Shown here piece by piece: positions 2,459 through 25,167 of a DNA stretch of 25,738 bases. Location: IMG/VR virus record IMGVR_UViG_2690316286_000008; one strand, given 5' to 3'. The notes under the pieces were generated by a model that had not been told where the DNA came from, searched no databases, and saw nothing but the letters and a program-made list of their open reading frames with translations. Within the stretch, counting starts at the first letter, position 1. Every line of letters begins with the position of its first letter. The position numbers and the translations under genes are program-made. This DNA is from a virus. Lineage: Duplodnaviria > Heunggongvirae > Uroviricota > Caudoviricetes.

Positions 2459-3036
2459 TGCGGGCCTCCTGTCGAATCGCTGCCACCTTTAACGCCACCG
2501 TGCTTATGCGTATGCACTGTGATGCCGTTTGAGGTGAAATCGCCGCCGCTGTGCGTGATATTGCCGCTCATCGTTCCCCCTTTTGTGACGTCAAGCGTCG
2601 CTGTTCTCAGAAGGTCTGTGCATTCCACGACAGGCGTGTTCAGTGTCACGCTGATGGATGCCTGCAAAGTGGCCGTTTTCATGCCGCTTGCGCTCAGTGC
2701 GCCTGCGTCCGCGTCGTAGCGGAACACCGCGCCGTCCGGCGCGCTGACCACGATTTCTTTCAGGCTTTTGCCGGGTGCCGGAATGGCATCACTCCACAGG
2801 CTGCCGATTATCATGGCGGTTTCCGGGTTGCCGCCGATGCAGGCAATTGCCACCTGTTCGCCTGGTGATGGCGGAAACCACACGTTGAAGTCTCCCGCGC
2901 GCGTGGTGTTCCAGCGCAGCCAGCCTGTTTCCAGTTCGCCGCTGCGAACGCGCACGCACCAGGATTCCTCATCAACTTCAGAGATGATCCCGGTGCGGAT
3001 GATATTGCTCAGCAGTCGCATGAGTTCTGCGCTCAT
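2455..3036 (-). CDS. V: Baseplate spike/assembly protein gpV
   Basis: 193-aa ORF; synteny between S and W; ATG at 3036 overlaps S stop. Confidence 0.82.
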   Translation of the reverse strand: MSAELMRLLSNIIRTGIISEVDEESWCVRVRSGELETGWLRWNTTRAGDFNVWFPPSPGEQVAIACIGGNPETAMIIGSLWSDAIPAPGKSLKEIVVSAPDGAVFRYDADAGALSASGMKTATLQASISVTLNTPVVECTDLLRTATLDVTKGGTMSGNITHSGGDFTSNGITVHTHKHGGVKGGSDSTGGPQ

Positions 3037-3668
3037 CGTACAGCCTCCGCAATCCGGCCCAGCACCGTGTTATAAATCAGGCGCTCATCTGCCTGGCTGA
3101 TACCCAGCAGCTCACGTACCGGGTAATCGGTGAAAATGCCCGGCGCAACCTGATCGCGCTCACCGAACTGATGAACGCGTGCAATACGTGCGGCCACGCC
3201 GCTGTAACCCACCGTCACACCGGAAGCATCTGCACGGGCTTTCAGGTAGCGGGCGGTGCGCAGTTTTACGAACATGGAGACGCGCCTGGTGCTGTCCTGG
3301 TTGATGCGCCGGGTGCGTATTTCCAGAAAACGGTCGATGTCATCCCGGTAAAACGTGCGGATATTGTTTTTATCCTCATCCCACCCGGTGATGGTTCGCC
3401 CGTATTTCCCCGTGTCGTGATGCCAGTTTTTCAGCGTGCGTGCTTCGTTATTCCAGATAAAGCGAATGCGCTCCTGTATCCGGGTTACGCGGCGTCTGCG
3501 TGGTGTCCATGCGGTCCCGTCCGGCGCTTTCTGTGACCGGATACGCGCCTGCTGGGCGCGGCGTAAATCCTGTGCCAGCTTTCTGGCGATGTTATTAATG
3601 GCCTGCTGATTCAGGCTGTCGCGGATAGCCTCAAAGGTTTCATCCACGCGGGTGAATGCCTTATCCAT
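3033..3668 (-). CDS. S: Tail completion / virion morphogenesis protein gpS-like (longer than recalled P2 S)
   Basis: 211-aa ORF directly downstream of R; C-terminal block ...RIARVHQFGERD... resembles gpS family; start ATG at 3668 overlaps R stop. Confidence 0.65.
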   Translation of the reverse strand: MDKAFTRVDETFEAIRDSLNQQAINNIARKLAQDLRRAQQARIRSQKAPDGTAWTPRRRRVTRIQERIRFIWNNEARTLKNWHHDTGKYGRTITGWDEDKNNIRTFYRDDIDRFLEIRTRRINQDSTRRVSMFVKLRTARYLKARADASGVTVGYSGVAARIARVHQFGERDQVAPGIFTDYPVRELLGISQADERLIYNTVLGRIAEAVR

Positions 3669-4128
3669 CGCTTTCCCCCCACGTCACATCCTGGAATACA
3701 TGCGACCAGTCGCCTTCGGAAGAGGGCAGGCGGGGTTTTGGCTCCGGCAGGTGTTCTGCCTGCGGTGTGCCCTGACTGCTGCGCGTGATGCGAACGCGTT
3801 CCCGCAGGGGGAGCGTAAACAGGAGATCGGCGCTGTCATCGTCATTGATAACGGCGGAAAATTTGATGTCCTGATTACGCTCCGGATTGAGCAACAACTG
3901 TGGCTGATTTTCGGATAACCACGCCAGCAGCGGCAGCGTGAGGTCGTCCAGCTCTCCGGCGTAATCCATGACAAACATCACTATCTGATAGCGGTAAACA
4001 AACGATGGGGTTTCTCCGGTCGTTTCAATGTTGCCGCTCTCCACGAAAATGGTGAATTTTTCCGGGTTGGCATGACACCACCGGCATGAACGGGTCATGG
4101 CTTCACGCAGGGAATCAGTTTTCAGCAT
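3661..4128 (-). CDS. R: Tail completion protein gpR
   Basis: 155-aa ORF, same size and position as P2 R. Confidence 0.8.
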   Translation of the reverse strand: MLKTDSLREAMTRSCRWCHANPEKFTIFVESGNIETTGETPSFVYRYQIVMFVMDYAGELDDLTLPLLAWLSENQPQLLLNPERNQDIKFSAVINDDDSADLLFTLPLRERVRITRSSQGTPQAEHLPEPKPRLPSSEGDWSHVFQDVTWGESDG

Positions 4129-4405
4129 GGTTGTTGTCCTCGTTGTTCAGTCGTTGCAGCCTGCGCTGTTCCAGTAATTCAATGGCCCGCTTATCGGCGT
4201 TACAGGTTTCCAGTGCGTCCATGAGGCTGTCGCTCCATATCCCGATGTTTCCCCATGATGGCGTCACCGGAAACGGCGGGGGAAGTACGGGGGCGGTCAG
4301 CCCTTCCGGGATGAAACGGAACGACGGCGGCGGCGCGGACGCGTTCTGCGTGCTGGTGCAACCGCTCAGTAAAGCGAGCGTCAGGAACAGCGCGGGCACA
4401 TGCAT
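4115..4405 (-). CDS. lysC: Outer-membrane spanin (LysC/Rz1-like lipoprotein), embedded in alternate frame of lysB
   Basis: ORF 4115..4435 in +1 frame within lysB 3' half; internal ATG at 4405 gives signal peptide plus lipobox (LTLALLSGC) and Pro-rich body typical of o-spanins. Confidence 0.6.
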   Translation of the reverse strand: MHVPALFLTLALLSGCTSTQNASAPPPSFRFIPEGLTAPVLPPPFPVTPSWGNIGIWSDSLMDALETCNADKRAIELLEQRRLQRLNNEDNNHAEN

Positions 4406-9332: not shown

Positions 9333-11084
9333 ATGATTCAGGACGCTTTTGTGCGCCAGCGTGCGCGGCAACTTTACTGGCAGGGTTATCCGCCCGCAGA
9401 AATATCACGTCTGATGGGAATAAACCCGAACACGATTTATGCGTGGAAAAAACGCGACCAGTGGGATGAAACGCCACCCGTGCAGCGTGTCACGCAGTCC
9501 ATCGATGCGCGCCTCATCCAGCTTACTGAAAAACAGAATAAAACAGGTGGTGACTTTAAGGAAATAGACCTGCTGACCCGGCAGCTTAAAAAACTGCATG
9601 ATGGCCAGCCGGATGCGACGGCCACAGGAAAGAAAGGCCGGGCGAAAAAACTCAAAAATCATTTCACGCCGGAACAGATTGCCGCACTGCGGGAAAAAAT
9701 CATCAGCAGGCTGGAGTGGCATCAGCGGGGCTGGTTTGACTCCCTGACGCTTTGCAGGGAAGCCGGGATACGTAACAGGATGATCCTGAAATCCCGACAG
9801 ATTGGGGCGACCTGGTATTTTGCACAGGAAGCACTGCTGATGGCGCTGCGTGACGATGTGGCACAACCTTACCAGCGTAACCAGATTTTTTTGTCTGCGT
9901 CGCGTCGTCAGGCGTTCCAGTTTAAAAGCATTATTCAGAAGGCCGCGGCTGAAGTCGATGTGGAGCTGAAAGGGGGCGATAAAATCATCCTCTCCAACGG
10001 CGCAGAGATGCATTTTCTCGGCACTTCTGCTGCGACGGCGCAATCTTACACGGGCAATTTTTATTTTGATGAATTTTTCTGGGTCAGTCGCTTTGCTGAA
10101 CTGCGCAAGGTGGCTGGCGCTATGGCAACCCTCAGCGGACTGCGGCGCACCTGCTTCTCCACGCCATCCACCGAAACGCACGAGGCATACGCCTACTGGA
10201 ACGGCGACCGCTGGAACGAGAAAAAGGCCGCGCATAAACGCCAGCGTTTTTCTGTGGACTGGAAAACGCTGCATAACGGGCTTATCTGCCCTGACCGGAC
10301 GTGGCGGCAAATTGTCACGCTGGAAGATGTGGTTAATCACGGCTGGAAACACACCGATATTGATGAAATTCGTGATGAAAACACCGAAGACGAGTTCCGC
10401 AATCTCTATATGTGTGAGTTTGTCCGCGAAGGGGAATCGGCATTTAACCTGAATATCCTGATTGGCTGCGGTGTTGACGGATACGACGACTGGAAAGACT
10501 GGAAACCCTTTGCCCCCCGCCCGATGGGGAATCGTCCGGTATGGATTGGGTATGACGCAAACGGCAGCAGTGGTAACGGCGACAGCGGCGCTGTGTCCGT
10601 GGTGGTTCCTCCGGCTGTTCCTGGTGGTCGTTTCAGAACGGTGGAGACGCGACGCGTTCAGGGGCTGGAATTTGAAGAGCAGGCCAGAGTTATTGAAGAG
10701 TTCACGTATCGCTACAACGTGGAACACATCGGCATTGATGCGACGGGCGGGCACGGGGATGCCGTCTATCAGATAGTGAAACGGTTTTTTCCCGCCGCCA
10801 TCCCTTACACCTTCACGCTGTCATCAAAACGGTCGCTGGTACTGAAAATGCTGCAAATAATGCGTGCCGGGCGGTGGGAATACGATCGCGCCGAACGCGA
10901 GCTGGTTGCGGCCTTTAACGCCGTGCGTAAGGTGAAAACACCGGGCGGTTTTATCACTTACGAAACGGACCGCGCGAGGGGGATCAGCCACGGCGACCTT
11001 GCGTGGGCAACCATGCTTGCTGTCATTAACGAACCGATTGGCGGCGAAGGAGAAAACGAGCGTTTCACGGTTATGGAGTTCTGA
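9333..11084 (+). CDS. P: Terminase large (ATPase) subunit gpP
   Basis: 583-aa ORF with RBS GGGGGAG; size and position equal P2 P; stop overlaps Q start. Confidence 0.92.
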   Translation: MIQDAFVRQRARQLYWQGYPPAEISRLMGINPNTIYAWKKRDQWDETPPVQRVTQSIDARLIQLTEKQNKTGGDFKEIDLLTRQLKKLHDGQPDATATGKKGRAKKLKNHFTPEQIAALREKIISRLEWHQRGWFDSLTLCREAGIRNRMILKSRQIGATWYFAQEALLMALRDDVAQPYQRNQIFLSASRRQAFQFKSIIQKAAAEVDVELKGGDKIILSNGAEMHFLGTSAATAQSYTGNFYFDEFFWVSRFAELRKVAGAMATLSGLRRTCFSTPSTETHEAYAYWNGDRWNEKKAAHKRQRFSVDWKTLHNGLICPDRTWRQIVTLEDVVNHGWKHTDIDEIRDENTEDEFRNLYMCEFVREGESAFNLNILIGCGVDGYDDWKDWKPFAPRPMGNRPVWIGYDANGSSGNGDSGAVSVVVPPAVPGGRFRTVETRRVQGLEFEEQARVIEEFTYRYNVEHIGIDATGGHGDAVYQIVKRFFPAAIPYTFTLSSKRSLVLKMLQIMRAGRWEYDRAERELVAAFNAVRKVKTPGGFITYETDRARGISHGDLAWATMLAVINEPIGGEGENERFTVMEF

Positions 11085-12130
11085 TGAGCAGAAAAAATAA
11101 AAAAGTGCGCATGAGTTCACGCATTGATCTCGCTGATGCGCTCAGGAAAGAATCGTCGCTCAGTGCATTCACATTTGATGGTCCTTACCGCCTGACCGGG
11201 CATGACCTGCTGGACAATATGTACTGTGCTGATAACGGGCGGTGGTATGAAACCCCGGTGGACTGGTACGGTCTGGCAAGAGCTGCCCGGCAAACGTCCT
11301 GGCATCAGTCTGCGCTTTACTTTAAGCGCAATGTATTGCTCGGCTGCTATATTCCGCACCCGCTGCTTTCCCGGCAGGATTTCTCGGCGCTGGCGCTGGA
11401 CTGGTTTGTGTTCGGTAACGCATTCCTTGAGCTTCGGAGCAATATGCTCGGCGAACCGCTTAAATTACGGCACGCCCTGGCGAAATACATGCGACGCGGA
11501 AGCGATCTTGAATCATGGTGGTATGTGCAGGATGGCAAGGATGCGTTTCAGTTTCGTCCTGGCAAAGTGTGCCACCTGATGAATCCGGATATTAACCAGG
11601 AAATCTACGGCATGCCGGAATATCTTGGCGCATTACTCTCGGCCAGCCTTTCTCATTCGGCGGACATGTTCAGAAAACTGTACTACGACAACGGATCCCA
11701 CGCCGGGTGCATCATCTACATCGGTGCAGCGCAGGTAAACCGCGAAAGCATGGACTCCCTGAAAGAAACGCTACAGGGGGCACGTGGTGGTGGTGCGTTT
11801 AAAAACGTGCTCATTCATGCGCCCAACGGGGGCAAAGAGGGGGTGCAAATTTTGCCGTTCCAGCAGATCACCGCAAAGGATGAGTTCATGAATGTTAAGG
11901 CGGCATCCCGTGATGATGTGCTGGCTGCGCACCGCGTTCCGCCGCAACTGATGGGGGCGATGCCGGGCGAAAAAAGTGCGTTTGGTGATGTGGAGAAGGC
12001 CGCGCGGGTTTACGCAATTAACGAGCTGATGCCCGTCATGGAGGCCATGAAGCACATCAATGACTGGCTTGGCGAAGAGGTGATCCGCTTTAACCCTTAC
12101 GCACTGTTAGACACCCAGCCCACATCCTGA
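11084..12130 (+). CDS. Q: Portal protein gpQ
   Basis: 348-aa ORF immediately after P; size and position equal P2 Q. Confidence 0.9.
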   Translation: MSRKNKKVRMSSRIDLADALRKESSLSAFTFDGPYRLTGHDLLDNMYCADNGRWYETPVDWYGLARAARQTSWHQSALYFKRNVLLGCYIPHPLLSRQDFSALALDWFVFGNAFLELRSNMLGEPLKLRHALAKYMRRGSDLESWWYVQDGKDAFQFRPGKVCHLMNPDINQEIYGMPEYLGALLSASLSHSADMFRKLYYDNGSHAGCIIYIGAAQVNRESMDSLKETLQGARGGGAFKNVLIHAPNGGKEGVQILPFQQITAKDEFMNVKAASRDDVLAAHRVPPQLMGAMPGEKSAFGDVEKAARVYAINELMPVMEAMKHINDWLGEEVIRFNPYALLDTQPTS

Positions 12131-12621
12131 CGCGCTTCGCTTGTCTGCTGCTTCGCCGGGGCATAAAAAATTTATGCCCCGACTCTCCAGCTCCTGTATC
12201 AGTCAGATAATTTCACGACGCTTTCCTGCTGATTGCCATCATCGACAGTCAGACTCTTACGCAATCCCACCTCGTTGACTGCATATTCTCGCCGTCTCAG
12301 TGCGATTTTGACGGCCTTACCTTTCACCCCATCAAATCAAAAGCCCTCACGTCTTTTTCACGCTCAGCGTGAGAAATACAGCCATTCTGTTGTATCTCTG
12401 CGACATCGTTCAGGGAATGCTATTTACCCCCTGAAACGCGGGCTGTTCCCCCGTCACCTGCGCGCAGAAAAAACGCGTTTTTTTGTGCATGCACGGATCC
12501 TTGACGGATCCAGCCGCCACGCGGGCCGGAAGGGCAAAAAGTCGTTCAAAAAAATTGTGCAAATTTGTGCACTATTGTGCATTTATAAAATCAACTAAAA
12601 AACACCTAGTGTGACTTACCT
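12131..12621. other. Non-coding region expected to contain cos (packaging site), rich in palindromes and phased repeats
   Basis: Synteny (cos lies beside Q in P2); partial resemblance of reverse-complement of 12511-12523 (GCGTGGCGG) to the start of the recalled P2/186 cohesive-end sequence; not verified. Confidence 0.4.
12555..12581. repeat. Three TTGTGCA direct repeats phased at exactly 10 bp (a fourth copy at 12483-12489)
   Basis: Read directly: attgtgcaaatttgtgcactattgtgcattt. Confidence 0.85.
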
Positions 12622-12807
12622 CTACCACTCGATCGGCACGTAGTCATTAAGTTCCGGAGACCAATTGCACTTTTCACATCTGTGTTTTCCATTCTGGCAG
12701 ATACATAAACGATAACGGCCACAATGCGGGCACCCATTTTCACCATTATCATAATCACCGAGCGACCATTCCTGCATAAGCAGCTCTTCTTCATCATCAT
12801 TTAGCAT
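12622..12807 (-). CDS. Small Cys-rich zinc-ribbon protein (61 aa), unknown function
   Basis: ATG at 12807 preceded by AAGGGGG RBS; CPHCG...CIC...CEKC cysteine pattern; acidic N-terminus; last gene of cargo operon. Confidence 0.55.
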   Translation of the reverse strand: MLNDDEEELLMQEWSLGDYDNGENGCPHCGRYRLCICQNGKHRCEKCNWSPELNDYVPIEW

Positions 12808-12821
12808 TAATCCCCCTTGAG

Positions 12822-13061
12822 CTATTTACTCTTCTCGGCCCTCAAAATCATACGAGAACCATCATCCAGCTCCCAATTAATTTCACCGCCTTCTGCCATG
12901 ACTAGATGCCAAACGAGTTGAGCGGCCTCGTTGGTTACATCGCGACCGCGATCATTTCCTACGCGGCGTTTTGTTCCGTCTCCTAAGTCACGCATTTTTG
13001 CCAATACGATGGTTTTTGATAGCGGTGAAAAACCAAGCTGTAGTCGTGCTGAATTACTCAC
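12822..13061 (-). CDS. Hypothetical small protein (79 aa, GTG start)
   Basis: GTG at 13061 overlapping stop of upstream gene (GTGA) with AAGGGGG RBS 6 nt upstream; stop TAG lies inside RBS of next gene. Confidence 0.5.
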   Translation of the reverse strand: MSNSARLQLGFSPLSKTIVLAKMRDLGDGTKRRVGNDRGRDVTNEAAQLVWHLVMAEGGEINWELDDGSRMILRAEKSK

Positions 13062-13582
13062 TGGCTGCCCCCTTTGTACTGTGTTAACTCTTCCTGCTCC
13101 TGCATCATGCGATTGACCTGAACGCGTGTGCGTCGAACGGCAAAATTAAATTGAAACATGAGCCGGAACATTTCTGATGCTTCCGTGTGAGCATCACGGA
13201 TAGGTGACAGGCGGTACAGTTCTGCCTCCGTAGCTTGTTGAATCAATGACAGATCAAATTGAAGTGCGGGTCTGGTACATTTTGCACATCTGGCAGCAAG
13301 CTCCGGTATTAGTCTCTTAACGAAGGTGTTTTGCACCGCTTTGTTGATTTGTGTCTGCATCCAAATCGCAAATTTCAGCGAACGCATAAGTTTGATAGCC
13401 TCGGGCAGCGGCAGATAGATCATGCTGGTAGATTTGGGTGGTTGGTGAACCATCTTCACGGATACGCGATTTCGCAGCGTTCGGAAAATCGTGTTCCCAA
13501 CAACAGCTTCTACGGATACAGGACAGGGAGCCAGACCAGCCCGCAGTGCTTCTTTCATTAGCATGTATTCGTATTTTTTCAT
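13058..13582 (-). CDS. Hypothetical protein (174 aa), unknown function
   Basis: ATG at 13582 with GAGGA RBS; no family recognised by eye. Confidence 0.6.
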   Translation of the reverse strand: MKKYEYMLMKEALRAGLAPCPVSVEAVVGNTIFRTLRNRVSVKMVHQPPKSTSMIYLPLPEAIKLMRSLKFAIWMQTQINKAVQNTFVKRLIPELAARCAKCTRPALQFDLSLIQQATEAELYRLSPIRDAHTEASEMFRLMFQFNFAVRRTRVQVNRMMQEQEELTQYKGGSQ

Positions 13583-13642
13583 CGTGTTTTCCTCGTGCGG
13601 GGCGACAGTGCACCCCGATAAAATTAAAAGCCGTCAAATTCG

Positions 13643-13954
13643 TCATTCAGGAAATAATGCCCGGATATTCCCTGCTATCTGACTGGTTATCTGTGCGGTT
13701 GGTACTGGCTGTGGCACGGGGCGTTCTGTCCTGGTTTGTGTCACCGATAACGCCTCATCGTCAGCCCATGCAGCCAGTCGGTAAGCCTCTGCTGGATTCA
13801 TTTTCAGAAGTGCCAGCCCGGCCAGAAAAGCCACGCGTTGGCCGCTTTTGCGGGCTTCTGGTGTAAGGCTGCCCAGCCAGGCGCATGCTTCGCTTTCGTT
13901 CTTGACGGTCGCAGGCTTCAGATAGAAACTTATCCGTCTGGTTGGTGTCGTCAT
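13643..13954 (-). CDS. parR: ParR-like DNA-binding protein (type II partition adaptor-like), 103 aa
   Basis: ORF 13643..14089 trimmed to ATG 13954 (AGGAG RBS, 4 nt after parM stop); blocks RRISFYLKP and RVAFLAGLALL...NP parallel R1 ParR (RRTIAFKLNP, RAALTAGLALY..DP), and terminal NIRALFPE parallels ILRSLFPKE. Confidence 0.65.
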   Translation of the reverse strand: MTTPTRRISFYLKPATVKNESEACAWLGSLTPEARKSGQRVAFLAGLALLKMNPAEAYRLAAWADDEALSVTQTRTERPVPQPVPTAQITSQIAGNIRALFPE

Positions 13955-13958
13955 TGGT

Positions 13959-14918
13959 TTACTCCTTGTCCATTGCGTACAGCCCATTAACCAGAGCAAA
14001 CTGTGGCACCCCGTCCGCGATGAAAGTCGCATTAACTCCGCAGGCTTCGCGGATAGCGGGTGCCACAATCTCCGCCCCTCCACCGACAACCATCACCCGC
14101 CCGTAACCCGAAAAACCCGCCAGCGCGCGGATCACGCGTTGTTTCAGTGTTTCTTCCTTTTCACGAATAACCGCCATCAGGCTGGCGTAATGCGCGTCAT
14201 TGTGGATGTGCTGGCGCAGCCAGGCTTCATCATGGCGATGTTCGATAATGGTATTGGCGATGTGGTGACTGGTGCGCATACCGTTAGTGGCCATCACCGA
14301 CAGTACGGCATCGGCCATCAGAGAAACGCCTACGTGTGGATCGCAAAACACCTGGCTGATACCTGCCAGTTGCCCCTGAACCTTTGCCACATCCAGCGTG
14401 GTTCCGCCCAAATCCACAATCAGCAGGGATTCAAACGGACTCATGTCAGCCAGTGCCTTAAAGCCAGCCGGAATGGATTCAGGCATAACCCGCACGTTAC
14501 GGATAGTGAATGCTTCGCCGTTCTGGTACTCCACCGGGCGCATAACGTTCGCTTTTTTGCGGTTGATGTTGGCCATGTCCGGCTGTGCGTTTGTGTCGAA
14601 ATACTCGCTCAGTGGCAGGGTGACAACCACATCCACCTCCTGTGGCGTGATGCCTGATTTGACCAGCGCGTGATGAATGGCAATGACATTTACATCGCTG
14701 TACTGGTATTGCGTGTCGGTTGTCTGGACAAAGCGATCGCTGACCGGATCAAAACCATAGCGCACGCCATCAAGCATGTAGTTCGCGGGCTGCATGCCAC
14801 CGAACGGCGCAGACCATTCCGACTTGAAGCTGTTCGGGCTGATGGCGTTGCGGCGTTCGCCGTTCTCAGTCCATGCCAGCTTGATGTTGGTGGAGCCGTC
14901 GTCGATACAAATTTTCAT
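13959..14918 (-). CDS. parM: ParM/StbA-like actin-fold ATPase (319 aa)
   Basis: Translation MKICIDDGSTNIKL...YSDVNVIAIHHAL...MPESIPAG...LLIVDLGGTTLD...VMVVGGGAEIV...LVNGLYAM aligns along full length with recalled plasmid R1 ParM, including phosphate-binding and adenosine motifs. Confidence 0.85.
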   Translation of the reverse strand: MKICIDDGSTNIKLAWTENGERRNAISPNSFKSEWSAPFGGMQPANYMLDGVRYGFDPVSDRFVQTTDTQYQYSDVNVIAIHHALVKSGITPQEVDVVVTLPLSEYFDTNAQPDMANINRKKANVMRPVEYQNGEAFTIRNVRVMPESIPAGFKALADMSPFESLLIVDLGGTTLDVAKVQGQLAGISQVFCDPHVGVSLMADAVLSVMATNGMRTSHHIANTIIEHRHDEAWLRQHIHNDAHYASLMAVIREKEETLKQRVIRALAGFSGYGRVMVVGGGAEIVAPAIREACGVNATFIADGVPQFALVNGLYAMDKE

Positions 14919-14945: not shown

Positions 14946-15062
14946 ATCGTTTACGGGATTCTGAAATCCCGTTTTTGCCTGTTTTGTGCGCGCTTCATAT
15001 ATCGCTGCGCGTTTTTTGCTCATTTACGGGATTCGTGAGTCCCGTTTCTGTCTGTTTTTTGT
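14946..15062 (+). terminator. Cluster of three plus-strand hairpin+T-tract elements (two are near-identical ~40-bp copies with palindrome ACGGGATT..AATCCCGT) between parM start and end of gene A
   Basis: Read directly: tttacgggattctgaaatcccgtttttgcctgtttt (14950-14985) and tttacgggattcgtgagtcccgtttctgtctgtttttt (15023-15060), plus gcgcgc..gcgcgtttttt between. Confidence 0.55.
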
Positions 15063-17817
15063 TTCCACTGGTCAGGCCACCCCGCAGCAGGTCTGCTTTG
15101 CGGCGGGCGCGTTCAGTGGTTTCACTGATTCTCTGTGCGTGCTCTGCGTCGCGGATGGCGCGCAGCATGTCAGAAAGCACGGTAACGGGTGTTTTCATGG
15201 TGTTCTGGTCCTGCTGAAGTGTGGATGCCAGGCGTGCGGCGGCTTCAGGGTCTGATGCCCCCAGCTGTGTCAGATAGCTGGCGACCGGGTTATGGCGGAT
15301 CTCCGTGCTGCTTACGCCATGATTACGGCTCAGGCGCTGCCAGAGCTGCGTGATTCGGCTGTCCGGGCGGGTATCCGGTTTGCGTACAATTTCAAATCCC
15401 TGCGGTGCAATGATGCTGCCGTCAACGTACAGACTGCCGCCCCGTAACAGGTGCTGCATCTGTTGTTCACCGATATGCAGGCCGAGAGATTCAGCAGACT
15501 CCCGCCATTCTTTAGCGAGTAATTCGTGGTTATCAGGCAAAGGCCGCTGCTGTTTGCGGCTCTGTGTCCAGCTCTGCATTTCATCACTGCTGTTTTTTGC
15601 CTGTTTGTCACGAAGCGAACGCATCAGCGCCCGGCGTTCGTGCCGTTTCAGTGAGCGCATCCATTCATCCACATCAACGCCGTCAGGGAGCTGCGGCCAC
15701 GGTGCTGGCCGTTCTTCCGGCTGTTCTGTCCCGTTGTTGTCCGTTTCCTGTACACGGGGACAGTTATTGCCACGAGTCCAAGGGGCGGCAGGGCCGCCCT
15801 GAAGGTCAAAACCATTTTCGCGGGCGCTGTCTTCCGCTTCCGGTTTGCGTCTTACCAGCTTCCAGTTATCCGGATGCGTGCACACACGGGAGGATTCCCC
15901 GATGAGTGGTGACCAGATCCCGTAAATCTGTACGCTCTGTTCGCCGTAATCGTTCAGCTCATCGGCGAGGTCGTAGGCGGTGCGAATCAGGTAGTCTTTG
16001 CGTGGAACAAGTACGCCGCCCTGTTTCTCTATGTAGGTGGCAAAACATCCGGCATCAGCGGCGGCAAGAACCGCATCCATTGCGTCATCCTTCAGCCGTT
16101 GCGGGCCTTCCGGGTTGCGTGCCATCTGGCTGGCAAGGCGGCGCAGTTCACGCCATACCTGGCGGGAGGGGATGCCAAAGAACTGGAACTGGCGGACCCG
16201 GTGAAGGCGCGCCCAGCCGATGGCGCGTTCCACGCTCTCGGCCATTGATTTTCCGGTTTCGTGGTCAACGCGTGGCTTGCCCGTTTTCGGGTCGATGCCA
16301 TCCACGGCGCGGCTGTCCAGGTTTTTCCCGATGTAGGTGGCGATGTAGCTGGTTGGCGTGCCTTTTGAGCCGTCTACATACTCCGCCTTAAAGCGCGGAG
16401 TTATGTCATCGCCCAGCTCGTGACGATCTTCCTGAATGGCAATATCGCGGGTGTGGGACACAATGGTGTCGATTTCTTCCGGATGAGCAAAGACCATCAT
16501 ATGCCAGTGCACGGTGCCGTCATGGTGAGGCTCCGCCGTGCGGATGCCATACCAGCGCAGGCCGTCGCGGTTCAGTTTTTTGCGGACCGTCGCAAAAAAC
16601 GTGTTAACCAGGTAATCGCTGGAGTCGCGCATTGTGGCCCCGTTCCATTTGGGATTCGGATGACCGTTCTCCGTTGTGGCGTGGTATTTTGACGGGCAGG
16701 TGACAGTCAGAAACACCGCTTTGTCGCCACGGGCTTCGGCCAGAAGTTCCAGCCCCTTCATGGTGGCCATCATTTCTGCCTTACGGTGAACCGGGTTACT
16801 TACTCCCGCGTAATACACCGTCTCGAGATCAATCGTGAACCCGTCTTCATTTTCCAGCATGAAACTTTTCAGGAAATCGCGTGTTTTCTCGCGCTGTGCG
16901 CGAAACTCGCTTAACGCGTCCTGGCTCAGATAGGGCGATGTTTTTCTGGAAACCAGACAGGCGGCGCGAAGTTGTTCTTCTCTCCACTCGCAACGTAACA
17001 GCCACAGTTTGCGTTTCCACCATTCCGCACAGGTCAGGCGAAGGATTGCGCCCGGCAGCAGTTCTGTGTCCGGTTCGTGCCTCCGGTCTTTGTCTGTTGT
17101 CAGTGCGTCATAATGCGGAGGCATGGCGTGTAAGTGTAACGCCATGCGGGCCAGCATCTGATACGCCTTCAGCGTTACATCCATGGTCAGCTCGCCATCA
17201 GTCGCGCCAAAACCATCGCAGAGTTTTTCGAAGGTGCTGCTGAACATCGCCGCCGTCATGGTGGCCAGCGTCTGTATCTGGTGTTTGTTGAGTTGCGGCA
17301 GGTAAAGCAAATCGTCCAGGCGTTCACGTCCGGCAAGGGAGCGATAACCCGGTGTCAGCCAGTGTCCGTCAGTGCGATCCAGACGTTCGAATATTTTGCG
17401 CAGGGTTCCGCGTGCATAGCGTTCCGCCTGCCAGCTCTTTTTGCCTTTCCGGCGATCGGCTTCCTGTTTTTTGCGCAGGAAGGAGAGGTGGCGAATAAGC
17501 GGATCGCGCAGATAGGACGGCAGCAGGCGCAGCGAGGCCATGGCTTCATCCACCGCGCCGCGTGCCTGTTTTCTGGCGTCTCCTGCCAGTGTGATGGTTT
17601 TGTCCTGTTTTTCCTGTGCGTCCAGGCTTTTATTAATCAGGTTGCCCAGTGGCGTGGCGGAGAACGCCGCATCAGCCATTTCCTGGCGGCGCTCGTTCTC
17701 TGCCCGGTGGGCATCCAGCCAGGAGGAAAGCGCGGATTCAGGAGCGGGGATCCCCGTTCCTTCACGCCCCACTGCGTGGCGCGGTTGTTGCCAGTCCCTG
17801 ATGTACTCTGCCGTCAT
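14995..17817 (-). CDS. A: Replication initiation protein gpA (rolling-circle endonuclease) with C-terminal extension
   Basis: 940-aa ORF; HUH-like motif HDGTVHWHMMVFA and paired tyrosines SYIATYIGKN typical of P2 A family; N-terminus resembles P2 A. Confidence 0.88.
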   Translation of the reverse strand: MTAEYIRDWQQPRHAVGREGTGIPAPESALSSWLDAHRAENERRQEMADAAFSATPLGNLINKSLDAQEKQDKTITLAGDARKQARGAVDEAMASLRLLPSYLRDPLIRHLSFLRKKQEADRRKGKKSWQAERYARGTLRKIFERLDRTDGHWLTPGYRSLAGRERLDDLLYLPQLNKHQIQTLATMTAAMFSSTFEKLCDGFGATDGELTMDVTLKAYQMLARMALHLHAMPPHYDALTTDKDRRHEPDTELLPGAILRLTCAEWWKRKLWLLRCEWREEQLRAACLVSRKTSPYLSQDALSEFRAQREKTRDFLKSFMLENEDGFTIDLETVYYAGVSNPVHRKAEMMATMKGLELLAEARGDKAVFLTVTCPSKYHATTENGHPNPKWNGATMRDSSDYLVNTFFATVRKKLNRDGLRWYGIRTAEPHHDGTVHWHMMVFAHPEEIDTIVSHTRDIAIQEDRHELGDDITPRFKAEYVDGSKGTPTSYIATYIGKNLDSRAVDGIDPKTGKPRVDHETGKSMAESVERAIGWARLHRVRQFQFFGIPSRQVWRELRRLASQMARNPEGPQRLKDDAMDAVLAAADAGCFATYIEKQGGVLVPRKDYLIRTAYDLADELNDYGEQSVQIYGIWSPLIGESSRVCTHPDNWKLVRRKPEAEDSARENGFDLQGGPAAPWTRGNNCPRVQETDNNGTEQPEERPAPWPQLPDGVDVDEWMRSLKRHERRALMRSLRDKQAKNSSDEMQSWTQSRKQQRPLPDNHELLAKEWRESAESLGLHIGEQQMQHLLRGGSLYVDGSIIAPQGFEIVRKPDTRPDSRITQLWQRLSRNHGVSSTEIRHNPVASYLTQLGASDPEAAARLASTLQQDQNTMKTPVTVLSDMLRAIRDAEHAQRISETTERARRKADLLRGGLTSGNKKQTETGLTNPVNEQKTRSDI

Positions 17818-20251: not shown

Positions 20252-20563
20252 ATGTCAATAGAGATATCAAAGAAGCTAAAAGCAATTCGAGAATCTGAGG
20301 GGCTTAGTCAGGCAAAGTTCGCGGATTCAATAGGTATTGCGGTTGGTACGGTTAAGCAATACGAGACTGGTATTCGAGGTGTGGGAACGGAGGTTTTACT
20401 GAAAATCACAATGCACCCGGAATTTAAAAAATACACTACGTGGTTGATGAGTAACGAAACAAATGAGGCTGCTGGGCAGATCAGTCCTTCTCTCTCCCCT
20501 GATGGGCCAGAAAACACATCGTCTTCTCAAAAATCCCGCAAGACTGGCACACAGCCCGGCTAA
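20252..20563 (+). CDS. C: Immunity repressor C (HTH, P2 C-like), 103 aa
   Basis: ORF 20150..20563 trimmed to ATG 20252 (AGGTG RBS); helix-turn-helix block LSQAKFADSIGIAVGTVKQYETG; C-terminal ...FKKYTTWLMSNE... resembles P2 C. Confidence 0.8.
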   Translation: MSIEISKKLKAIRESEGLSQAKFADSIGIAVGTVKQYETGIRGVGTEVLLKITMHPEFKKYTTWLMSNETNEAAGQISPSLSPDGPENTSSSQKSRKTGTQPG

Positions 20564-20612
20564 TCATGGAACGCTGGGGGCATGGTGGTCTTGTAACGCT
20601 GGGGCTTCACGA

Positions 20613-21590
20613 ATGAGCATAAAATCAATTCCGGGAGGGTATCTTCTTGACATGCGTCCTGAGGGGCGTAAAGGCAAACGCATTCGCAAAAAATTTAAAA
20701 CGAAATCGGATGCAGTTTTATATGAGCGGTGGGTGCTGGCGCAACAGCATAACAATGAGTGGAAAGGAAACTCCATTGATCGCCGTCCGCTGTCAGTGCT
20801 TATTGACTTGTGGTGGAAATACCACGGCCAGCTAATGAAGTCAGGGCATAACACGCGCCTTAAATTGCTGCGCTTGAGTGAGGCAATGGATGACCCGTGC
20901 GTGCATAAACTTAATACAACGATGCTCACCGAGCTACGTGTGTCCAGGATAGAGCAGGGGATACAGCCCAGCACCATAAATCGAGAGATTGGGGCGTTAA
21001 GCGCGATGTTTACCGCACTCATCTCATCCGGCCATTTTCTTAACGATAACCCCGTTCAAGGCCTTAAAGGAATGAAGGTTAACGAGCGTGAAATGGGATA
21101 TCTGAGTAAGTCTGAATGTGTTCAGTTGCTGGATGCACTGGCTGAAAATCCCGATGAACGGCTGGCCGTCGAAATCCTTCTGTCGACCGGGGCGCGATGG
21201 GGCGAGGTAGCGGCACTGGAGCAGCGCCGTGTTCTTCATTGTCGAATCACTTTTTCAAAAACGAAGAACAGCAAAAACCGTACCGTTCCTATTTCTGAAA
21301 GCCTGTTTGAAAAGATCAAAAAACGGGGCGGGAAACTGGTGTTTCCGACGCTGGATTATTCATTGGTTCGCGATGTCATCAAAACGGTCGCACCTGATGT
21401 TCCTGACGGCCAGGCTGTTCATGCGCTGCGCCACACCTTCGCCAGTCATTTCATGATGAACGGCGGCAATATTCTGACGCTCCAGAAAATTCTGGGGCAC
21501 GCAAAGATTCAGACAACGATGATTTATGCCCATCTTGCGCCGGATTACTTGCAGGATGCGGTGAGGTTTAATCCCTTGGGAGGAATGTAA
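20613..21590 (+). CDS. int: Tyrosine integrase, P2 Int family (325 aa)
   Basis: ORF 20463..21590 trimmed to ATG 20613 (MSIKSIPGGYLLDMRPEGRKGKRIRKKF... parallels P2 Int N-terminus); catalytic motifs LSTGARWGEV, HALRHTFASHF, MIYAHLAPDYLQDA. Confidence 0.9.
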   Translation: MSIKSIPGGYLLDMRPEGRKGKRIRKKFKTKSDAVLYERWVLAQQHNNEWKGNSIDRRPLSVLIDLWWKYHGQLMKSGHNTRLKLLRLSEAMDDPCVHKLNTTMLTELRVSRIEQGIQPSTINREIGALSAMFTALISSGHFLNDNPVQGLKGMKVNEREMGYLSKSECVQLLDALAENPDERLAVEILLSTGARWGEVAALEQRRVLHCRITFSKTKNSKNRTVPISESLFEKIKKRGGKLVFPTLDYSLVRDVIKTVAPDVPDGQAVHALRHTFASHFMMNGGNILTLQKILGHAKIQTTMIYAHLAPDYLQDAVRFNPLGGM

Positions 21591-21592
21591 CT

Positions 21593-22093
21593 ATGGAAAT
21601 AAAAAAACCTACAAAAAAAGAGTTATATGACTATTTACTATCGAAATATATAGAAGATAAATGCAAAGAAGAAGCTGATGAAATCAATAAGAAGTCGATG
21701 AGTCGTGTCAAAAAACATAAAGAGCGGCTGATGGAGATTACGCCAGAAATCTTCTTCCGTTTCTTGTCTGAGAAGGGGGTCTCCAGTGTCTGCCCTTCAT
21801 GTGGATCGTCGCGATTATCTGTTCCAGAAAGTATGGATCTTTGCTGGGATAAAAATAAGAAACCAGAAAATTTTAACAATCTACCCCTGGAGGAACAGAG
21901 TGAGTTAATTAAAGAGAACATAAAGCATTATGTATCTTATGCTTTTTTGGGTGATGTTAAGAGCATACCTGATATGCGCAAAACTTATTACACGCTGCAT
22001 TGCCTGAATTGTGGTTACCTGAGCCTTTATCGTACGTCTGCGGTGCTGAAGTGGTTGGAGAAAGACAAAGCGCAGGATGGTGATAATGGGTAA
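21593..22093 (+). CDS. AT-rich zinc-ribbon protein (166 aa), unknown function
   Basis: ATG 2 nt after int stop, GGGAGGAA RBS inside int 3' end; CPSCG...CLNCG motifs; Lys/Glu-rich N-terminus; low G+C relative to flanks. Confidence 0.6.
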   Translation: MEIKKPTKKELYDYLLSKYIEDKCKEEADEINKKSMSRVKKHKERLMEITPEIFFRFLSEKGVSSVCPSCGSSRLSVPESMDLCWDKNKKPENFNNLPLEEQSELIKENIKHYVSYAFLGDVKSIPDMRKTYYTLHCLNCGYLSLYRTSAVLKWLEKDKAQDGDNG

Positions 22094-22631
22094 TGTAGCA
22101 AGAAATCTTTTCGGTAATTCAGCAGGTAGTGTGTCGCATTCTGAGCGTGATGTGCTTTATCATGGTGGCGATGGCGGCAGTAGTGGAGGCGGAATGTCAG
22201 ATAAACTTGAAAGGCGAATTGAGCGGCTCGAAGGTGATTTATCGCTAACAAGAAACGACCTTGCGACGCTTGCTGAACGCACTACAAACCTCTCAACTAA
22301 AGCCGATGTTGGTGAGGTGAAAGGTGAACTCAAAGCAGACATAGCACATCTGAAAGGTGATCTTGAATGCGATATTGCGAATCTGAAAGGTGAGCTTAAA
22401 TCTGATACAGCTAACCTGAAAGAGCAGCTCAAATCAGACATTAACAGCCTGAAGGGTGAGCTTACCGAAGCGATGGATAAACGCTTTGACAAGATTATGG
22501 ATGAGATGAATCGGCGGTTTGACAAGGTTGATGATAATACGAAGTGGCGTTGGAGTGGCATTATTGTGCCAGTGTGCACAACCATTTTCACAGCGGCGGT
22601 TGCTGTATTTGTTGCTAAATTTGTTGGCTGA
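22077..22631 (+). CDS. Coiled-coil protein with C-terminal transmembrane anchor (184 aa from first ATG; 145 aa if start is ATG 22194 with GGAGG RBS)
   Basis: Repeated LKGELK/LKGDLE heptad-like units then hydrophobic tail WSGIIVPVCTTIFTAAVAVFVAKFVG; overlaps upstream gene stop; architecture resembles DUF1640/XhlA-like tail-anchored proteins. Confidence 0.6.
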   Translation: MVIMGNVARNLFGNSAGSVSHSERDVLYHGGDGGSSGGGMSDKLERRIERLEGDLSLTRNDLATLAERTTNLSTKADVGEVKGELKADIAHLKGDLECDIANLKGELKSDTANLKEQLKSDINSLKGELTEAMDKRFDKIMDEMNRRFDKVDDNTKWRWSGIIVPVCTTIFTAAVAVFVAKFVG

Positions 22632-22740
22632 TGATCCACAAATTGACCACATCTCTGTTATTTGTTGTGGTTGGCTGTGTTTTTGTGTGTCTGTAAGTCT
22701 TTGATAATTACCTAACTTATTGATTTTTGTTTGTGTTTAT

Positions 22741-22767
22741 GGCCGCTCTGCGGCCTTTTTTCTTTTC
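22741..22767 (+). terminator. Rho-independent terminator-like hairpin upstream of btuC
   Basis: GGCCGC-tct-GCGGCC stem followed by TTTTTTCTTTT. Confidence 0.55.
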
Positions 22768-22823
22768 ACTGTCGAAGAGTCACCGTAAAATCAACGCCAT
22801 GACACTTCAGCAGAACGGATACC

Positions 22824-23804
22824 ATGCTGACACTTGCCCGCCAACAACAGCGACAAAATATTCGCTGGTTATTATGCCTGTCAGTTTTGATGCTGCTGGC
22901 GCTTCTCTTAAGCCTTTGCGCCGGTGAACAATGGATTTCGCCAGGTGACTGGTTTACTCCTCGTGGCGAACTGTTCGTCTGGCAAATTCGCCTGCCACGT
23001 ACGCTGGCTGTATTGCTGGTTGGTGCGGCGCTGGCTATATCCGGCGCTGTAATGCAGGCGTTGTTTGAAAATCCTCTGGCAGAACCTGGACTACTTGGCG
23101 TCTCTAACGGCGCAGGCGTGGGGCTTATCGCCGCGGTATTGCTTGGGCAAGGGCAACTCCCCAACTGGGCGCTAGGGCTGTGTGCGATTGCTGGCGCGCT
23201 TATCATCACTTTAATACTCTTACGTTTCGCCCGTCGTCATCTTTCGACCAGTCGGTTATTGCTGGCTGGCGTTGCATTAGGGATTATCTGTAGCGCACTA
23301 ATGACGTGGGCTATCTACTTTTCCACCTCTGTTGATTTACGTCAGCTGATGTACTGGATGATGGGCGGTTTTGGCGGCGTAGACTGGCGGCAAAGCTGGC
23401 TGATGCTGGCATTGATCCCCGTGTTGTTGTGGATCTGTTGTCAGTCCAGGCCGATGAATATGTTAGCACTTGGCGAGATCTCGGCGCGGCAACTGGGTTT
23501 ACCCCTGTGGTTCTGGCGCAATGTGCTGGTGGCAGCGACCGGCTGGATGGTTGGCGTCAGTGTGGCGCTGGCGGGTGCTATCGGCTTTATTGGTCTGGTG
23601 ATCCCACATATTCTTCGGTTGTGTGGTTTAACCGATCATCGCGTATTACTTCCCGGCTGCGCGCTGGCAGGGGCGAGCGCAGTGCTGCTGGCCGATATTG
23701 TAGCGCGCCTGGCATTAGCTGCCGCAGAGCTGCCTATTGGCGTGGTCACCGCAACGTTGGGTGCGCCGGTGTTTATCTGGTTATTGTTAAAAGCAGGACG
23801 TTAG
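22824..23804 (+). CDS. btuC: Vitamin B12 ABC transporter permease BtuC
   Basis: 326-aa translation matches E. coli BtuC along its length as recalled ([17 protein letters not shown]...LLLKAGR). Confidence 0.95.
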
Positions 23805-23866
23805 CCGCAAAAAGACGGTCTATGATTAAAAGCTAAGATTTTTACTGACCACACCCAGGAGAAACG

Positions 23867-24418
23867 ATGCAAGATTCCATTCTGACGACCGTAGTGAAAG
23901 ATATCGACGGTGAAGTGACCACGCTGGAGAAGTACGCCGGTAATGTGCTGTTGATTGTCAATGTCGCCTCAAAGTGTGGCTTAACGCCGCAATATGAGCA
24001 GTTGGAGAATATTCAGAAAGCCTGGGCCGATCGAGGTTTTGTGGTGCTGGGATTCCCGTGCAACCAGTTTCTGGAACAAGAACCGGGCAGCGATGAAGAG
24101 ATTAAAACTTACTGTACCACCACATGGGGGGTGACGTTCCCGATGTTCAGTAAGATTGAAGTTAACGGCGAAGGACGCCATCCGCTGTATCAAAAATTGA
24201 TTGCCGCAGCGCCGACCGCAGTCGCGCCGGAAGAGAGCGGATTCTATGCCCGTATGGTCAGCAAAGGTCGTGCACCGCTGTACCCTGATGATATTTTATG
24301 GAATTTTGAGAAATTTTTAGTTGGCAGGGACGGATTGGTCATCCAGCGTTTTTCCCCGGATATGACGCCGGAAGACCCCATTGTGATGGAAAGCATTAAA
24401 CTGGCGTTGGCAAAATAA
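23867..24418 (+). CDS. btuE: Glutathione peroxidase-family protein BtuE
   Basis: 183-aa ORF with GPx motifs (NVASKCG, WNFEKFL); position between btuC and btuD. Confidence 0.93.
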
Positions 24419-25167
24419 TGTCTATTGTGATGCAGTTACAGGATGTTGCGGAATCTACCCGCCTGGGGCCACTTTCTGGCGAGGTTCGGGCTGGGGAGAT
24501 CCTGCACCTGGTGGGGCCGAATGGCGCGGGTAAGAGTACCTTACTGGCACGAATGGCCGGAATGACCAGCGGTAAGGGAAGTATTCAGTTCGCGGGGCAA
24601 CCACTGGAAGCATGGTCCGCAACAAAACTCGCGCTGCATCGCGCCTATCTTTCACAACAGCAGACGCCGCCGTTTGCAATGCCGGTCTGGCACTATCTGA
24701 CACTGCATCAGCACGATAAAACGCGTACCGAACTACTGAATGATGTCGCAGGGGCGCTGGCTCTTGATGACAAACTCGGACGTAGCACCAATCAACTTTC
24801 CGGCGGTGAATGGCAACGCGTACGTCTTGCTGCGGTGGTGCTGCAAATCACACCACAAGCCAATCCCGCAGGCCAATTGCTGCTTCTTGATGAGCCGATG
24901 AACAGTCTTGATGTTGCGCAACAAAGTGCGTTAGACAAAATTCTGAGCGCTCTGTGTCAGCAAGGACTGGCGATTGTGATGAGCAGTCACGATCTCAACC
25001 ACACATTGCGTCATGCGCATCGGGCGTGGTTGCTAAAAGGTGGAAAAATGCTGGCCAGTGGACGCAGAGAAGAGGTGCTCACGCCGCCAAATCTGGCGCA
25101 GGCCTATGGGATGAATTTTCGCCGTCTGGATATCGAAGGTCACAGAATGCTGATTTCGACCATCTGA
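24418..25167 (+). CDS. btuD: Vitamin B12 ABC transporter ATP-binding protein BtuD
   Basis: Walker [10 protein letters not shown], signature LSGGEWQRV, Walker B LLLLDEP; 249 aa. Confidence 0.95.

Follow-up and report, generated by a model that had tools for sequence, protein, structure and literature searches.

Three small cargo genes in the gpA-gpQ slot of a P88-like prophage: their junctions, their distribution and their possible roles

The three genes and their slot

The DNA analysed here, referred to as the window, is the 25,738-nucleotide (nt) IMG/VR record IMGVR_UViG_2690316286_000008, a chromosomally integrated P88-like (P2-family) prophage. Its subject of interest is a group of three packed small open reading frames (ORFs) on the minus strand, downstream of the partition genes parM and parR (parMR), which encode proteins of 174, 79 and 61 amino acids (aa). 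A first-pass annotation, made from the sequence alone, had located these ORFs correctly and had taken their size, coupling and position as typical of toxin-antitoxin-like or effector-plus-regulator modules in defence islands. The genes are found here to occupy a known cargo hotspot, and each of them occurs elsewhere without the other two. Their coordinates are the following.

13058-13582, minus strand: 174-aa gene, ATG start
12822-13061, minus strand: 79-aa gene, GTG start, a member of DUF7446
12622-12807, minus strand: 61-aa gene, ATG start, a zinc ribbon

The stop codon of the 174-aa gene (TGA) and the start codon of the 79-aa gene (GTG) overlap at 13058-13061, which on the minus strand is read in ...CAAAGGGGGCAGCCAGTGAG.... 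The same ribosome-binding site (RBS), AAGGGGG, precedes two of the genes, at 13068-13074 (6 nt before the GTG) and at 12812-12818 (4 nt ahead of the ATG that starts the 61-aa gene), and the 174-aa gene has a GAGGA RBS of its own, 7 nt ahead of its ATG. Both the overlap and the repeated RBS had been noticed in the first-pass annotation and are confirmed. The TAG stop codon of the 79-aa gene (12822-12824), which had been placed inside the second RBS, is instead adjacent to it, 3 nt upstream of AAGGGGG and 14 nt before the ATG; the 3' end of this gene reads ...AGTAAATAGCTCAAGGGGGATTAATG on the minus strand.

In comparison with homologues, the ratio of nonsynonymous to synonymous substitution rates (dN/dS) is 0.23-0.38 for the 174-aa gene, 0.09-0.31 for the 79-aa gene and 0.09 for the 61-aa gene. 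These values indicate that the three are real genes under purifying selection, beyond chance ORFs. No transmembrane segment and no enzymatic or membrane domain was found in the three small proteins.

The slot that holds the genes lies between two conserved genes of P2-like phages.

14995-17817, minus strand: gene A, a Phage_GPA replication protein of 940 aa (Pfam E-value 7e-131), upstream of parM
11084-12130: gene Q, the portal gene, a 348-aa ORF that aligns with the RefSeq 'phage portal protein' of locus L001

The portal and large terminase genes are on the other side of the slot from gene A, and the three small genes thus have the location of gpA-gpQ hotspot cargo. The flanks of the slot are 95-96% identical to P88, Citrobacter phage Shae_phiSM and Escherichia phage Chuche, none of which has a counterpart of the three genes, and the cargo differs among relatives. 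The constant flank stops at 12581 and picks up again at 13642, with changing content in between among related prophages. The cos-proximal gpA-gpQ hotspot of P2-like prophages, rich in anti-phage systems, was defined by Rousset et al. 2022 (PMC9122126), who found defence systems as well as non-defence genes there, and a partition system in the slot of about one quarter of P2-like prophages. Table S5A of that study contains WP_000759755, a homologue of the 174-aa protein entered as 'hypothetical', and homologous arrangements are given there too.

Distribution of the genes and anatomy of their junctions

A census was taken of 39 loci with a homologue of the 174-aa protein. Where the 174-aa allele is at 47-95% identity, the next gene is Ead/Ea22-like, or a hypothetical gene followed by a YafO cassette, and the gene ahead is often a ClpX-type zinc-finger gene. 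Counted over about 28 non-clonal loci, the downstream neighbour is likewise Ead/Ea22-like or the YafO cassette. DUF7446 and the 61-aa gene follow the 174-aa gene only where the 174-aa allele is 100% identical, and this trio belongs to an E. coli O28ac / Shigella sonnei lineage. The exact 174-aa protein has entries in 1373 index blocks, and exact copies of the three proteins occur on 643-908 contigs that bear the name E. coli O28ac or Shigella sonnei; the abundance of the identical allele is that of one successful lineage. The 174-aa gene is carried by 29 of the 5426 complete E. coli genomes, with ead/Ea22 or a remnant of it beside the gene in every row of a 24-row sample. The pair of DUF7446 and 61-aa genes is present in 1 complete E. 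coli genome, versus 171 genomes with DUF7446 DNA. Hence, the proposal of a module in a defence island was right about the place, which is the gpA-gpQ hotspot, and not about the unit, given that the trio is restricted to one clonal allele.

Within the lineage of the trio, natural disruptions of individual genes also occur. In L047 (about 2573-4360), an insertion of about 1.2 kb divides the 174-aa gene, and in L195 (S. sonnei, 3001-3114) a contig end cuts the 61-aa gene short, probably at an insertion sequence (IS) element; in both cases the other two genes are intact.

In four sister prophages (L002, L018, L032 and L043), the 174-aa homologue is followed by a 72-nt Ead/Ea22 remnant, a gene for a 197-aa hypothetical protein and a YafO-family toxin gene. 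This arrangement is a genuine toxin cassette inserted in the gpA-gpQ slot.

The breakpoints of BLAST alignments fall at 12581/12582, at about 12837, at 13054-13082 and at 13649. The segments shared with other prophages, and the junctions between them, are as follows.

up to 12581: flank on the cos side, kept in every relative
12428-12837: 61-aa gene and flank, shared with Salmonella P2-like prophages (L011-L013) that lack DUF7446 and the 174-aa gene
12100-13082: DUF7446 and 61-aa genes, 98.9% identical in L004, E. coli FDAARGOS_943, which lacks the 174-aa gene
13054-13649: 174-aa gene and leader, shared with prophages in which Ead/Ea22 comes next
12808-12837, minus strand: junction ahead of the 61-aa gene, reading ..AGT AAA TAG, CTC, the Shine-Dalgarno (SD) site AAGGGGG at 12812-12818, and ATTA
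13054-13082, minus strand: 174-to-79 junction, with the SD site AAGGGGG at 13068-13074, a 6-nt spacer and the GTGA overlap at 13058-13061
13583-13649, minus strand: 67-nt leader of the 174-aa gene, with a hairpin and the GAGGA RBS, which travels with that gene

Homology with the loci in which the 174-aa gene is followed by Ead ends at 13054, and homology with L004 ends at 13082; in E. coli FDAARGOS_943, DUF7446 and the 61-aa gene are preceded by a ClpX-type zinc-finger gene and one of 75 aa. The interval 13054-13082 is where, as read from the sequence, recombination joined the 174-aa cassette to that of DUF7446. At the other junction, a stretch of about 30 nt ahead of the 61-aa gene, in which the 79-aa gene has its last three codons, is also present in the Salmonella loci without DUF7446. 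The usual length of DUF7446 proteins is 81-82 aa, and the copy in the window has 79 aa because its last three codons belong to this junction.

At the 174-to-79 joint stands a copy of ACAAAGGAGGCAA(C/A)CAGTGAG with slight mutations, and the main pattern of the joint is AAGG(A/G)GGCA..CAGTGAG. One joint sequence is found between many pairs of genes, among them 174-aa and Ead, the 75-aa gene and DUF7446, DUF2737 and DUF7446, and a P1-like plasmid gene and DUF7446. Its 19-mer, AAAGGAGGCAAMCAGTGAG, is present in at least 120 IMG/VR contigs (L052-L171), and also in L001-L006. From the 19-mer junctions, 142 upstream and 137 downstream ORFs were recovered. In the sample, the upstream ORFs belong to eight unrelated families (including Ead/Ea22-like, DUF2737 and the 174-aa family), all ending ..KGG(N/K)Q, and the downstream ORFs to sixteen unrelated families (including Ead/Ea22, DUF7446 and PAPS reductase), all starting MS..; upstream and downstream families are paired in many combinations. 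These shared ends follow from the joint itself: since it carries the SD site and the GTGA, the genes upstream end ..KGG(N/K/S)Q* and those downstream start MS... The tight packing and repeated RBS, which the first-pass annotation had understood as functional coupling, are thus those of a portable junction, and since such junctions are shared by many cassettes, they mark shuffling and not functional partnership.

Loss of the TGA within the joint was seen to give fused proteins in two cases (P0048 and P0049), each consisting of an upstream gene and DUF7446.

The three proteins, the leader and the surrounding features

The 174-aa protein is basic, with an isoelectric point (pI) of 10.0, soluble, and mostly helical according to a poor AlphaFold2 model (predicted local distance difference test, pLDDT, of 49.5). 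The earlier statement that it has no recognisable family holds after searches of Pfam, PHROGs, NCBIfam, PADLOC and the PDB. Its family is tiny, and database searches brought up close relatives only, with eight clusters in a phmmer-type search of 5.8 billion proteins and three representatives in a hidden Markov model search of 1.84 billion. No tblastn match was obtained in 50,697 phage records, and no relative in a scan of GTDB species-representative genomes; the gene was found at 24 loci in IMG/VR. The family occurs only in the gpA-gpQ slot of P2-like prophages, usually directly after parR or one gene on, and L009, a P2-like prophage that lacks parMR, has a homologue at 47% identity.

The leader of the 174-aa gene shows much stronger conservation than the coding sequence does. 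Across all loci, 60-66 of its 67 nt are identical (about 90-99%), even where the protein is only 47-52% identical, and the gene ahead of it varies (parR, a ClpX-type zinc-finger gene or a 55-aa gene). It contains a 7-bp G+C hairpin (13598-13617) and a TTGACG motif. There is no match to it in Rfam, and its fold is no stabler than that of shuffled sequences (z -0.15). A coding extension or upstream ORF is ruled out, as the frame of an upstream ATG relative to the main ORF varies (0, 1, 2); this variation between loci means that the leader is conserved at the nucleotide level. At some loci, a variable poly-C tract places the upstream ATG in frame, giving forms of 196-197 aa, and four IMG/VR contigs keep the leader and have lost the ATG (ATA).

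The 79-aa protein is a member of DUF7446 (PF24233), with an E-value of 9.7e-17 and a score of 61 bits against a cutoff of 24.1, its residues 7-77 aligning to positions 2-67 of the 70 in the profile; it also corresponds to phrog_1578 (PHROG E-value 2e-32). DUF7446 has more than 372 clusters across Enterobacterales, and PF24233 was found on all homologues listed. In the 171 complete E. coli genomes mentioned above, its DNA is on chromosomes and on plasmids of about 48-95 kb. It is common in lambdoid exo-xis regions and in P1-like plasmid prophages, and present in 21 isolated phages of several genera. In L005, for instance, a lambdoid prophage has it in the interval from recT to xis/int, beside DUF2737, DUF4752 and Ead/Ea22 genes, and in L006 it is on a P1-like plasmid. 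The model of the protein has a four-strand, helix, two-strand order (pLDDT 62.8), and a fold search with it returned no informative fold. The faint likeness of the C-terminus to AbrB/MazE-type antitoxins, suggested earlier, is not supported: Pfam gives DUF7446, and no such fold was found with this weak model. A literature search for DUF7446, PF24233, the PHROG identifiers and the RefSeq accessions found nothing.

The 61-aa protein corresponds to phrog_24897 (PHROG E-value 2.6e-46; 36 clusters). The cysteine pattern reported in the first-pass annotation, C26-x2-C29-x5-C35-x-C37-x6-C44-x2-C47, and the acidic N-terminus (pI 4.4) are both correct. In 27 sequences at 56-95% identity, C26, C29, C44 and C47, which form the two CxxC knuckles of a zinc ribbon, are invariant, as are C35, W14, W49 and an LGDY motif, with C37 nearly so. 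Pfam gave only generic zinc ribbons below threshold (17.1 bits against a cutoff of 25.4); the best E-values among the 27 family members are 2.5e-4 for Zn_ribbon_IS1595 (PF12760) and 2.2e-3 for the TFIIB zinc ribbon (PF08271), both below the gathering threshold. In P2-like prophages of Salmonella, the 61-aa gene is the only cargo gene beside cos and has about 190 nt of upstream DNA of its own; its family also occurs in nin-type and early arrays. Two assignments were tried and rejected: a TraR/DksA-like protein, such as lambda orf73 (hhalign probability 0.13%, E-value 0.45; no match to the Pfam family zf-dskA_traR), and an Ogr/Delta zinc finger (no Pfam match). In P0198, a 169-aa protein of Klebsiella grimontii, the zinc-ribbon sequence stands at the C-terminus, fused to about 110 unrelated aa; this is probably read-through from an upstream cassette, and not an informative domain fusion.

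Scans of the three proteins against Pfam, NCBIfam, PADLOC and PHROGs gave no match to any model of a toxin, an antitoxin or a defence system. These scans returned only DUF7446, two unnamed PHROGs of unknown function and the sub-threshold zinc ribbon.

No convincing promoter was found for the cluster, as the only site from a sigma-70 scan was a weak one within the 79-aa gene, with no site upstream. The three genes are probably co-transcribed as the tail of a gene A-parM-parR transcript, given that the early region, gene A, parM, parR and the trio run in one direction with no convincing terminator before 12557-12572. The remaining features of the slot are these.

13959-14918, minus strand: parM (RefSeq homologues of 319 aa)
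stop at 13643, start at an ATG equivalent to 13954, minus strand: parR, Plasmid_stab_B (E-value 9e-23; RefSeq homologues of 103 aa)
12546-12581, minus strand: end of the variable slot, with a terminator-like hairpin and TTGTGCA repeats, where the conserved flank starts

As called mechanically, the ParR ORF (13643-14089) has 148 aa and a TTG start and overlaps parM, and its RefSeq homologues start at the internal ATG equivalent to 13954, 4 nt past the parM stop. Two 42-nt direct repeats, 73 bp apart at 14947-15061, cover the 3' end of gene A together with the spacer that precedes parM, and each holds a 20-nt palindrome (ACGGGATTTCAGAATCCCGT or a variant). They are a candidate parC centromere or ParR operator.

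At the end of the slot, a weak terminator-like hairpin (12557-12572) with a U7 run lies inside three TTGTGCA repeats, and the homology of L001-L003, L007, L008 and L010 ends at 12581. The repeats (12551-12581) have 10-bp phasing and are kept at this conserved boundary in all related prophages, including those of Salmonella; they may be a protein-binding site near cos. A search of the whole window for the P2 cos 19-mer gave no match. Just past the portal gene, a perfect 11-nt inverted repeat (CGGGGCATAAA / TTTATGCCCCG; 12155-12183) is probably its terminator.

The right end of the window (20463-25167) contains an integrase gene (20463-21590) and, beyond it, two unassigned ORFs, one of 166 aa and one of 184 aa that has coiled-coil matches; btuC, btuE and btuD come next. 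This order indicates a prophage integrated beside the btu operon, and the two ORFs beyond int may be further cargo.

Interpretation and comparison with known systems

The reading we favour, and consider moderately probable as a whole, is that of mosaic cargo made of small proteins that act independently. The region consists of three independently mobile one-gene cassettes, namely the orphan, basic, helical 174-aa protein with its leader, DUF7446, and the acidic zinc ribbon, which would have been joined by homologous recombination at short junctions common to many temperate enterobacterial phages. By supplying a Shine-Dalgarno site and the GTGA overlap, the joint would allow translation of any inserted cassette. 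That the cargo is mosaic, and not a module, can be held with high confidence. The functional part is offered more tentatively: each product may be a small binding protein acting singly, a lone modulator of proteins or nucleic acids, as in lambdoid exo-xis ('ea') and nin regions, and may serve in early development, host take-over or counter-defence.

Several points weigh against this reading. The functional class of the three proteins is drawn from their context only. The slot is a proven anti-phage reservoir, in which about one third of the systems assayed were active against phage (Rousset et al. 2022, PMC9122126), and one or more of the genes could be a single-gene defence or exclusion factor. 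The structural models are poor (pLDDT of 49.5 and 62.8), which makes the fold-based exclusion of known families weak, and the sigma-70 scan gave no convincing promoter, so that the genes may be expressed in the lysogen or after induction. Finally, the trio is intact in many isolates of its lineage (643-908 contigs), which fits clonal descent and is compatible with a lineage-specific joint function as well.

Given this reservoir, at least one of the genes might be a stand-alone exclusion or defence factor expressed in the lysogen, for example from a ParR-controlled parMR promoter, in the manner of P2 tin or old. The 61-aa gene, as sole cos-side cargo with its own upstream DNA in Salmonella, would suit this explanation, as would the restriction of the 174-aa family to the slot, its absence from the phage records, and a leader so strongly conserved that it is a possible regulatory site. 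However, no PADLOC model matches, the proteins are small and without enzymatic or membrane domains or transmembrane segments, and the hotspot holds non-defence genes too; moreover, lambdoid, P22-like and other phages carry DUF7446 and the 61-aa family in arrays of their early operons, from which no expression would be expected in the lysogen. We therefore regard it as unlikely. A role of the 174-aa protein as an accessory of ParMR partition or of gene A replication, with the two downstream genes as unrelated passengers, is very unlikely. Its gene does usually stand directly after parR or one gene on, and the basic, helical protein, as modelled, would be compatible with DNA binding, yet only 29 of the approximately 1530 E. 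coli genomes that match a query of the parR region and flanks carry it. In addition, P88, Shae_phiSM and Chuche match the slot flanks only, over about 38% of the query, the protein is encoded in none of the phage records, and the homologue in L009 is in a prophage without parMR.

It is extremely improbable that the trio forms a single module of toxin-antitoxin-like or effector-plus-regulator type, in which the 174-aa protein would be the effector, DUF7446 the antitoxin and the zinc ribbon the regulator; the distribution of the genes largely refutes this. Type II toxin-antitoxin systems such as MazEF and the YafO family do resemble the trio in having small adjacent genes with overlapping ends, and a YafO-family toxin cassette is among the alternative cargo at this position in sister prophages. 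Nevertheless, no co-occurrence of the trio as a unit across diverged lineages was found, as the three genes come together only with one identical allele in the census of 39 loci; 174-aa homologues in L002, L018, L032 and L043 have neither DUF7446 nor an intact Ead downstream, and both DUF7446 and the 61-aa gene are common at loci that lack the other members of the trio. The trio also differs from such systems in lacking a conserved pairing and a recognisable toxin or antitoxin domain (an AbrB/MazE fold was not found with the weak model of the 79-aa protein), and in tolerating single-gene disruptions with the partners intact (L047 and L195), while the overlap is that of a generic linker.

Among known systems, mosaic cargo of independent genes compares well with other gpA-gpQ cargo of P2-like phages, such as old and tin of P2, in its slot between genes A and Q, its conserved flanks and its variable content. 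It differs in that the trio has no anti-phage activity on record or predicted, matches no defence model and resembles the accessory genes of lambdoid early regions. Those exo-xis or 'ea' genes (lambda orf60a, orf63, orf61, orf73, ea22 and ea8.5; P22 ea/ead) are small, overlapping and nonessential early genes; the boundary of lambda orf73 and ea22 has the same design of SD site and GTGA, Ead/Ea22-like is the usual neighbour of the 174-aa gene, and DUF7446 is found in that region of a lambdoid prophage. The 79-aa gene shares both the junction and the recT-to-xis/int location with this pool of genes, and the 174-aa gene the junction only. Ea22 influences the lysis-lysogeny decision (PMC10834534). 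Nonetheless, the trio sits in a P2-family phage downstream of parMR and not under pL, and by tblastn the three proteins have no homology to the lambda exo-xis proteins.

The junctions recall the linker sequences of phages. Susskind and Botstein reportedly discussed boundary or 'linker' sequences in mosaicism as part of the modular theory of phages in 1978, and boundary sequences in lambdoid mosaicism are said to have been described by Clark et al. in 2001 for HK620. As with such linkers, in which short conserved DNA at gene boundaries permits the exchange of whole genes, so behave the 19-nt joint and the 67-nt leader. The joint described here differs in spanning phage types (P2-like, lambdoid and P1-like plasmid prophage), and in imposing a ..KGGNQ tail and an MS.. 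start on unrelated proteins.

Two bolder proposals, independent of each other, are rather unlikely. One is that the 19-nt joint and the leader are dedicated cassette-exchange sites; if so, single accessory genes would be moved among lambdoid, P1-like and P2-like phages by a cassette system kept by selection for exchangeability. The other is that the 174-aa protein is a new lysogen-expressed regulator or anti-phage factor, suggested because its leader is kept at about 90-99% while the protein falls to 47% identity, its family is cos-proximal only, and no phage record contains it.

The three genes are of a known kind, namely further hotspot cargo, assembled by a known process from two catalogued uncharacterised families and one orphan, and specialists in phage genomics are unlikely to be surprised by this result. 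Its most interesting details are the portable 19-mer joint and the highly conserved leader. As items for follow-up, it offers an orphan family with an unusually conserved leader that is confined to a P2-type hotspot, and two widespread small prophage families, DUF7446 and the phrog_24897 zinc ribbon. In a phage hotspot, close packing of genes with overlapping stop and start codons and a recurring RBS is by itself no sign of a toxin-antitoxin or multi-gene defence system; in this prophage, these features are traces of cassette shuffling at a shared junction. A simple sequence marker, AAGGRGGCARMCAGTGAG, shows where cassettes begin and end in accessory regions of temperate phages of enterobacteria, and it could help to delimit single-gene units for functional screens.

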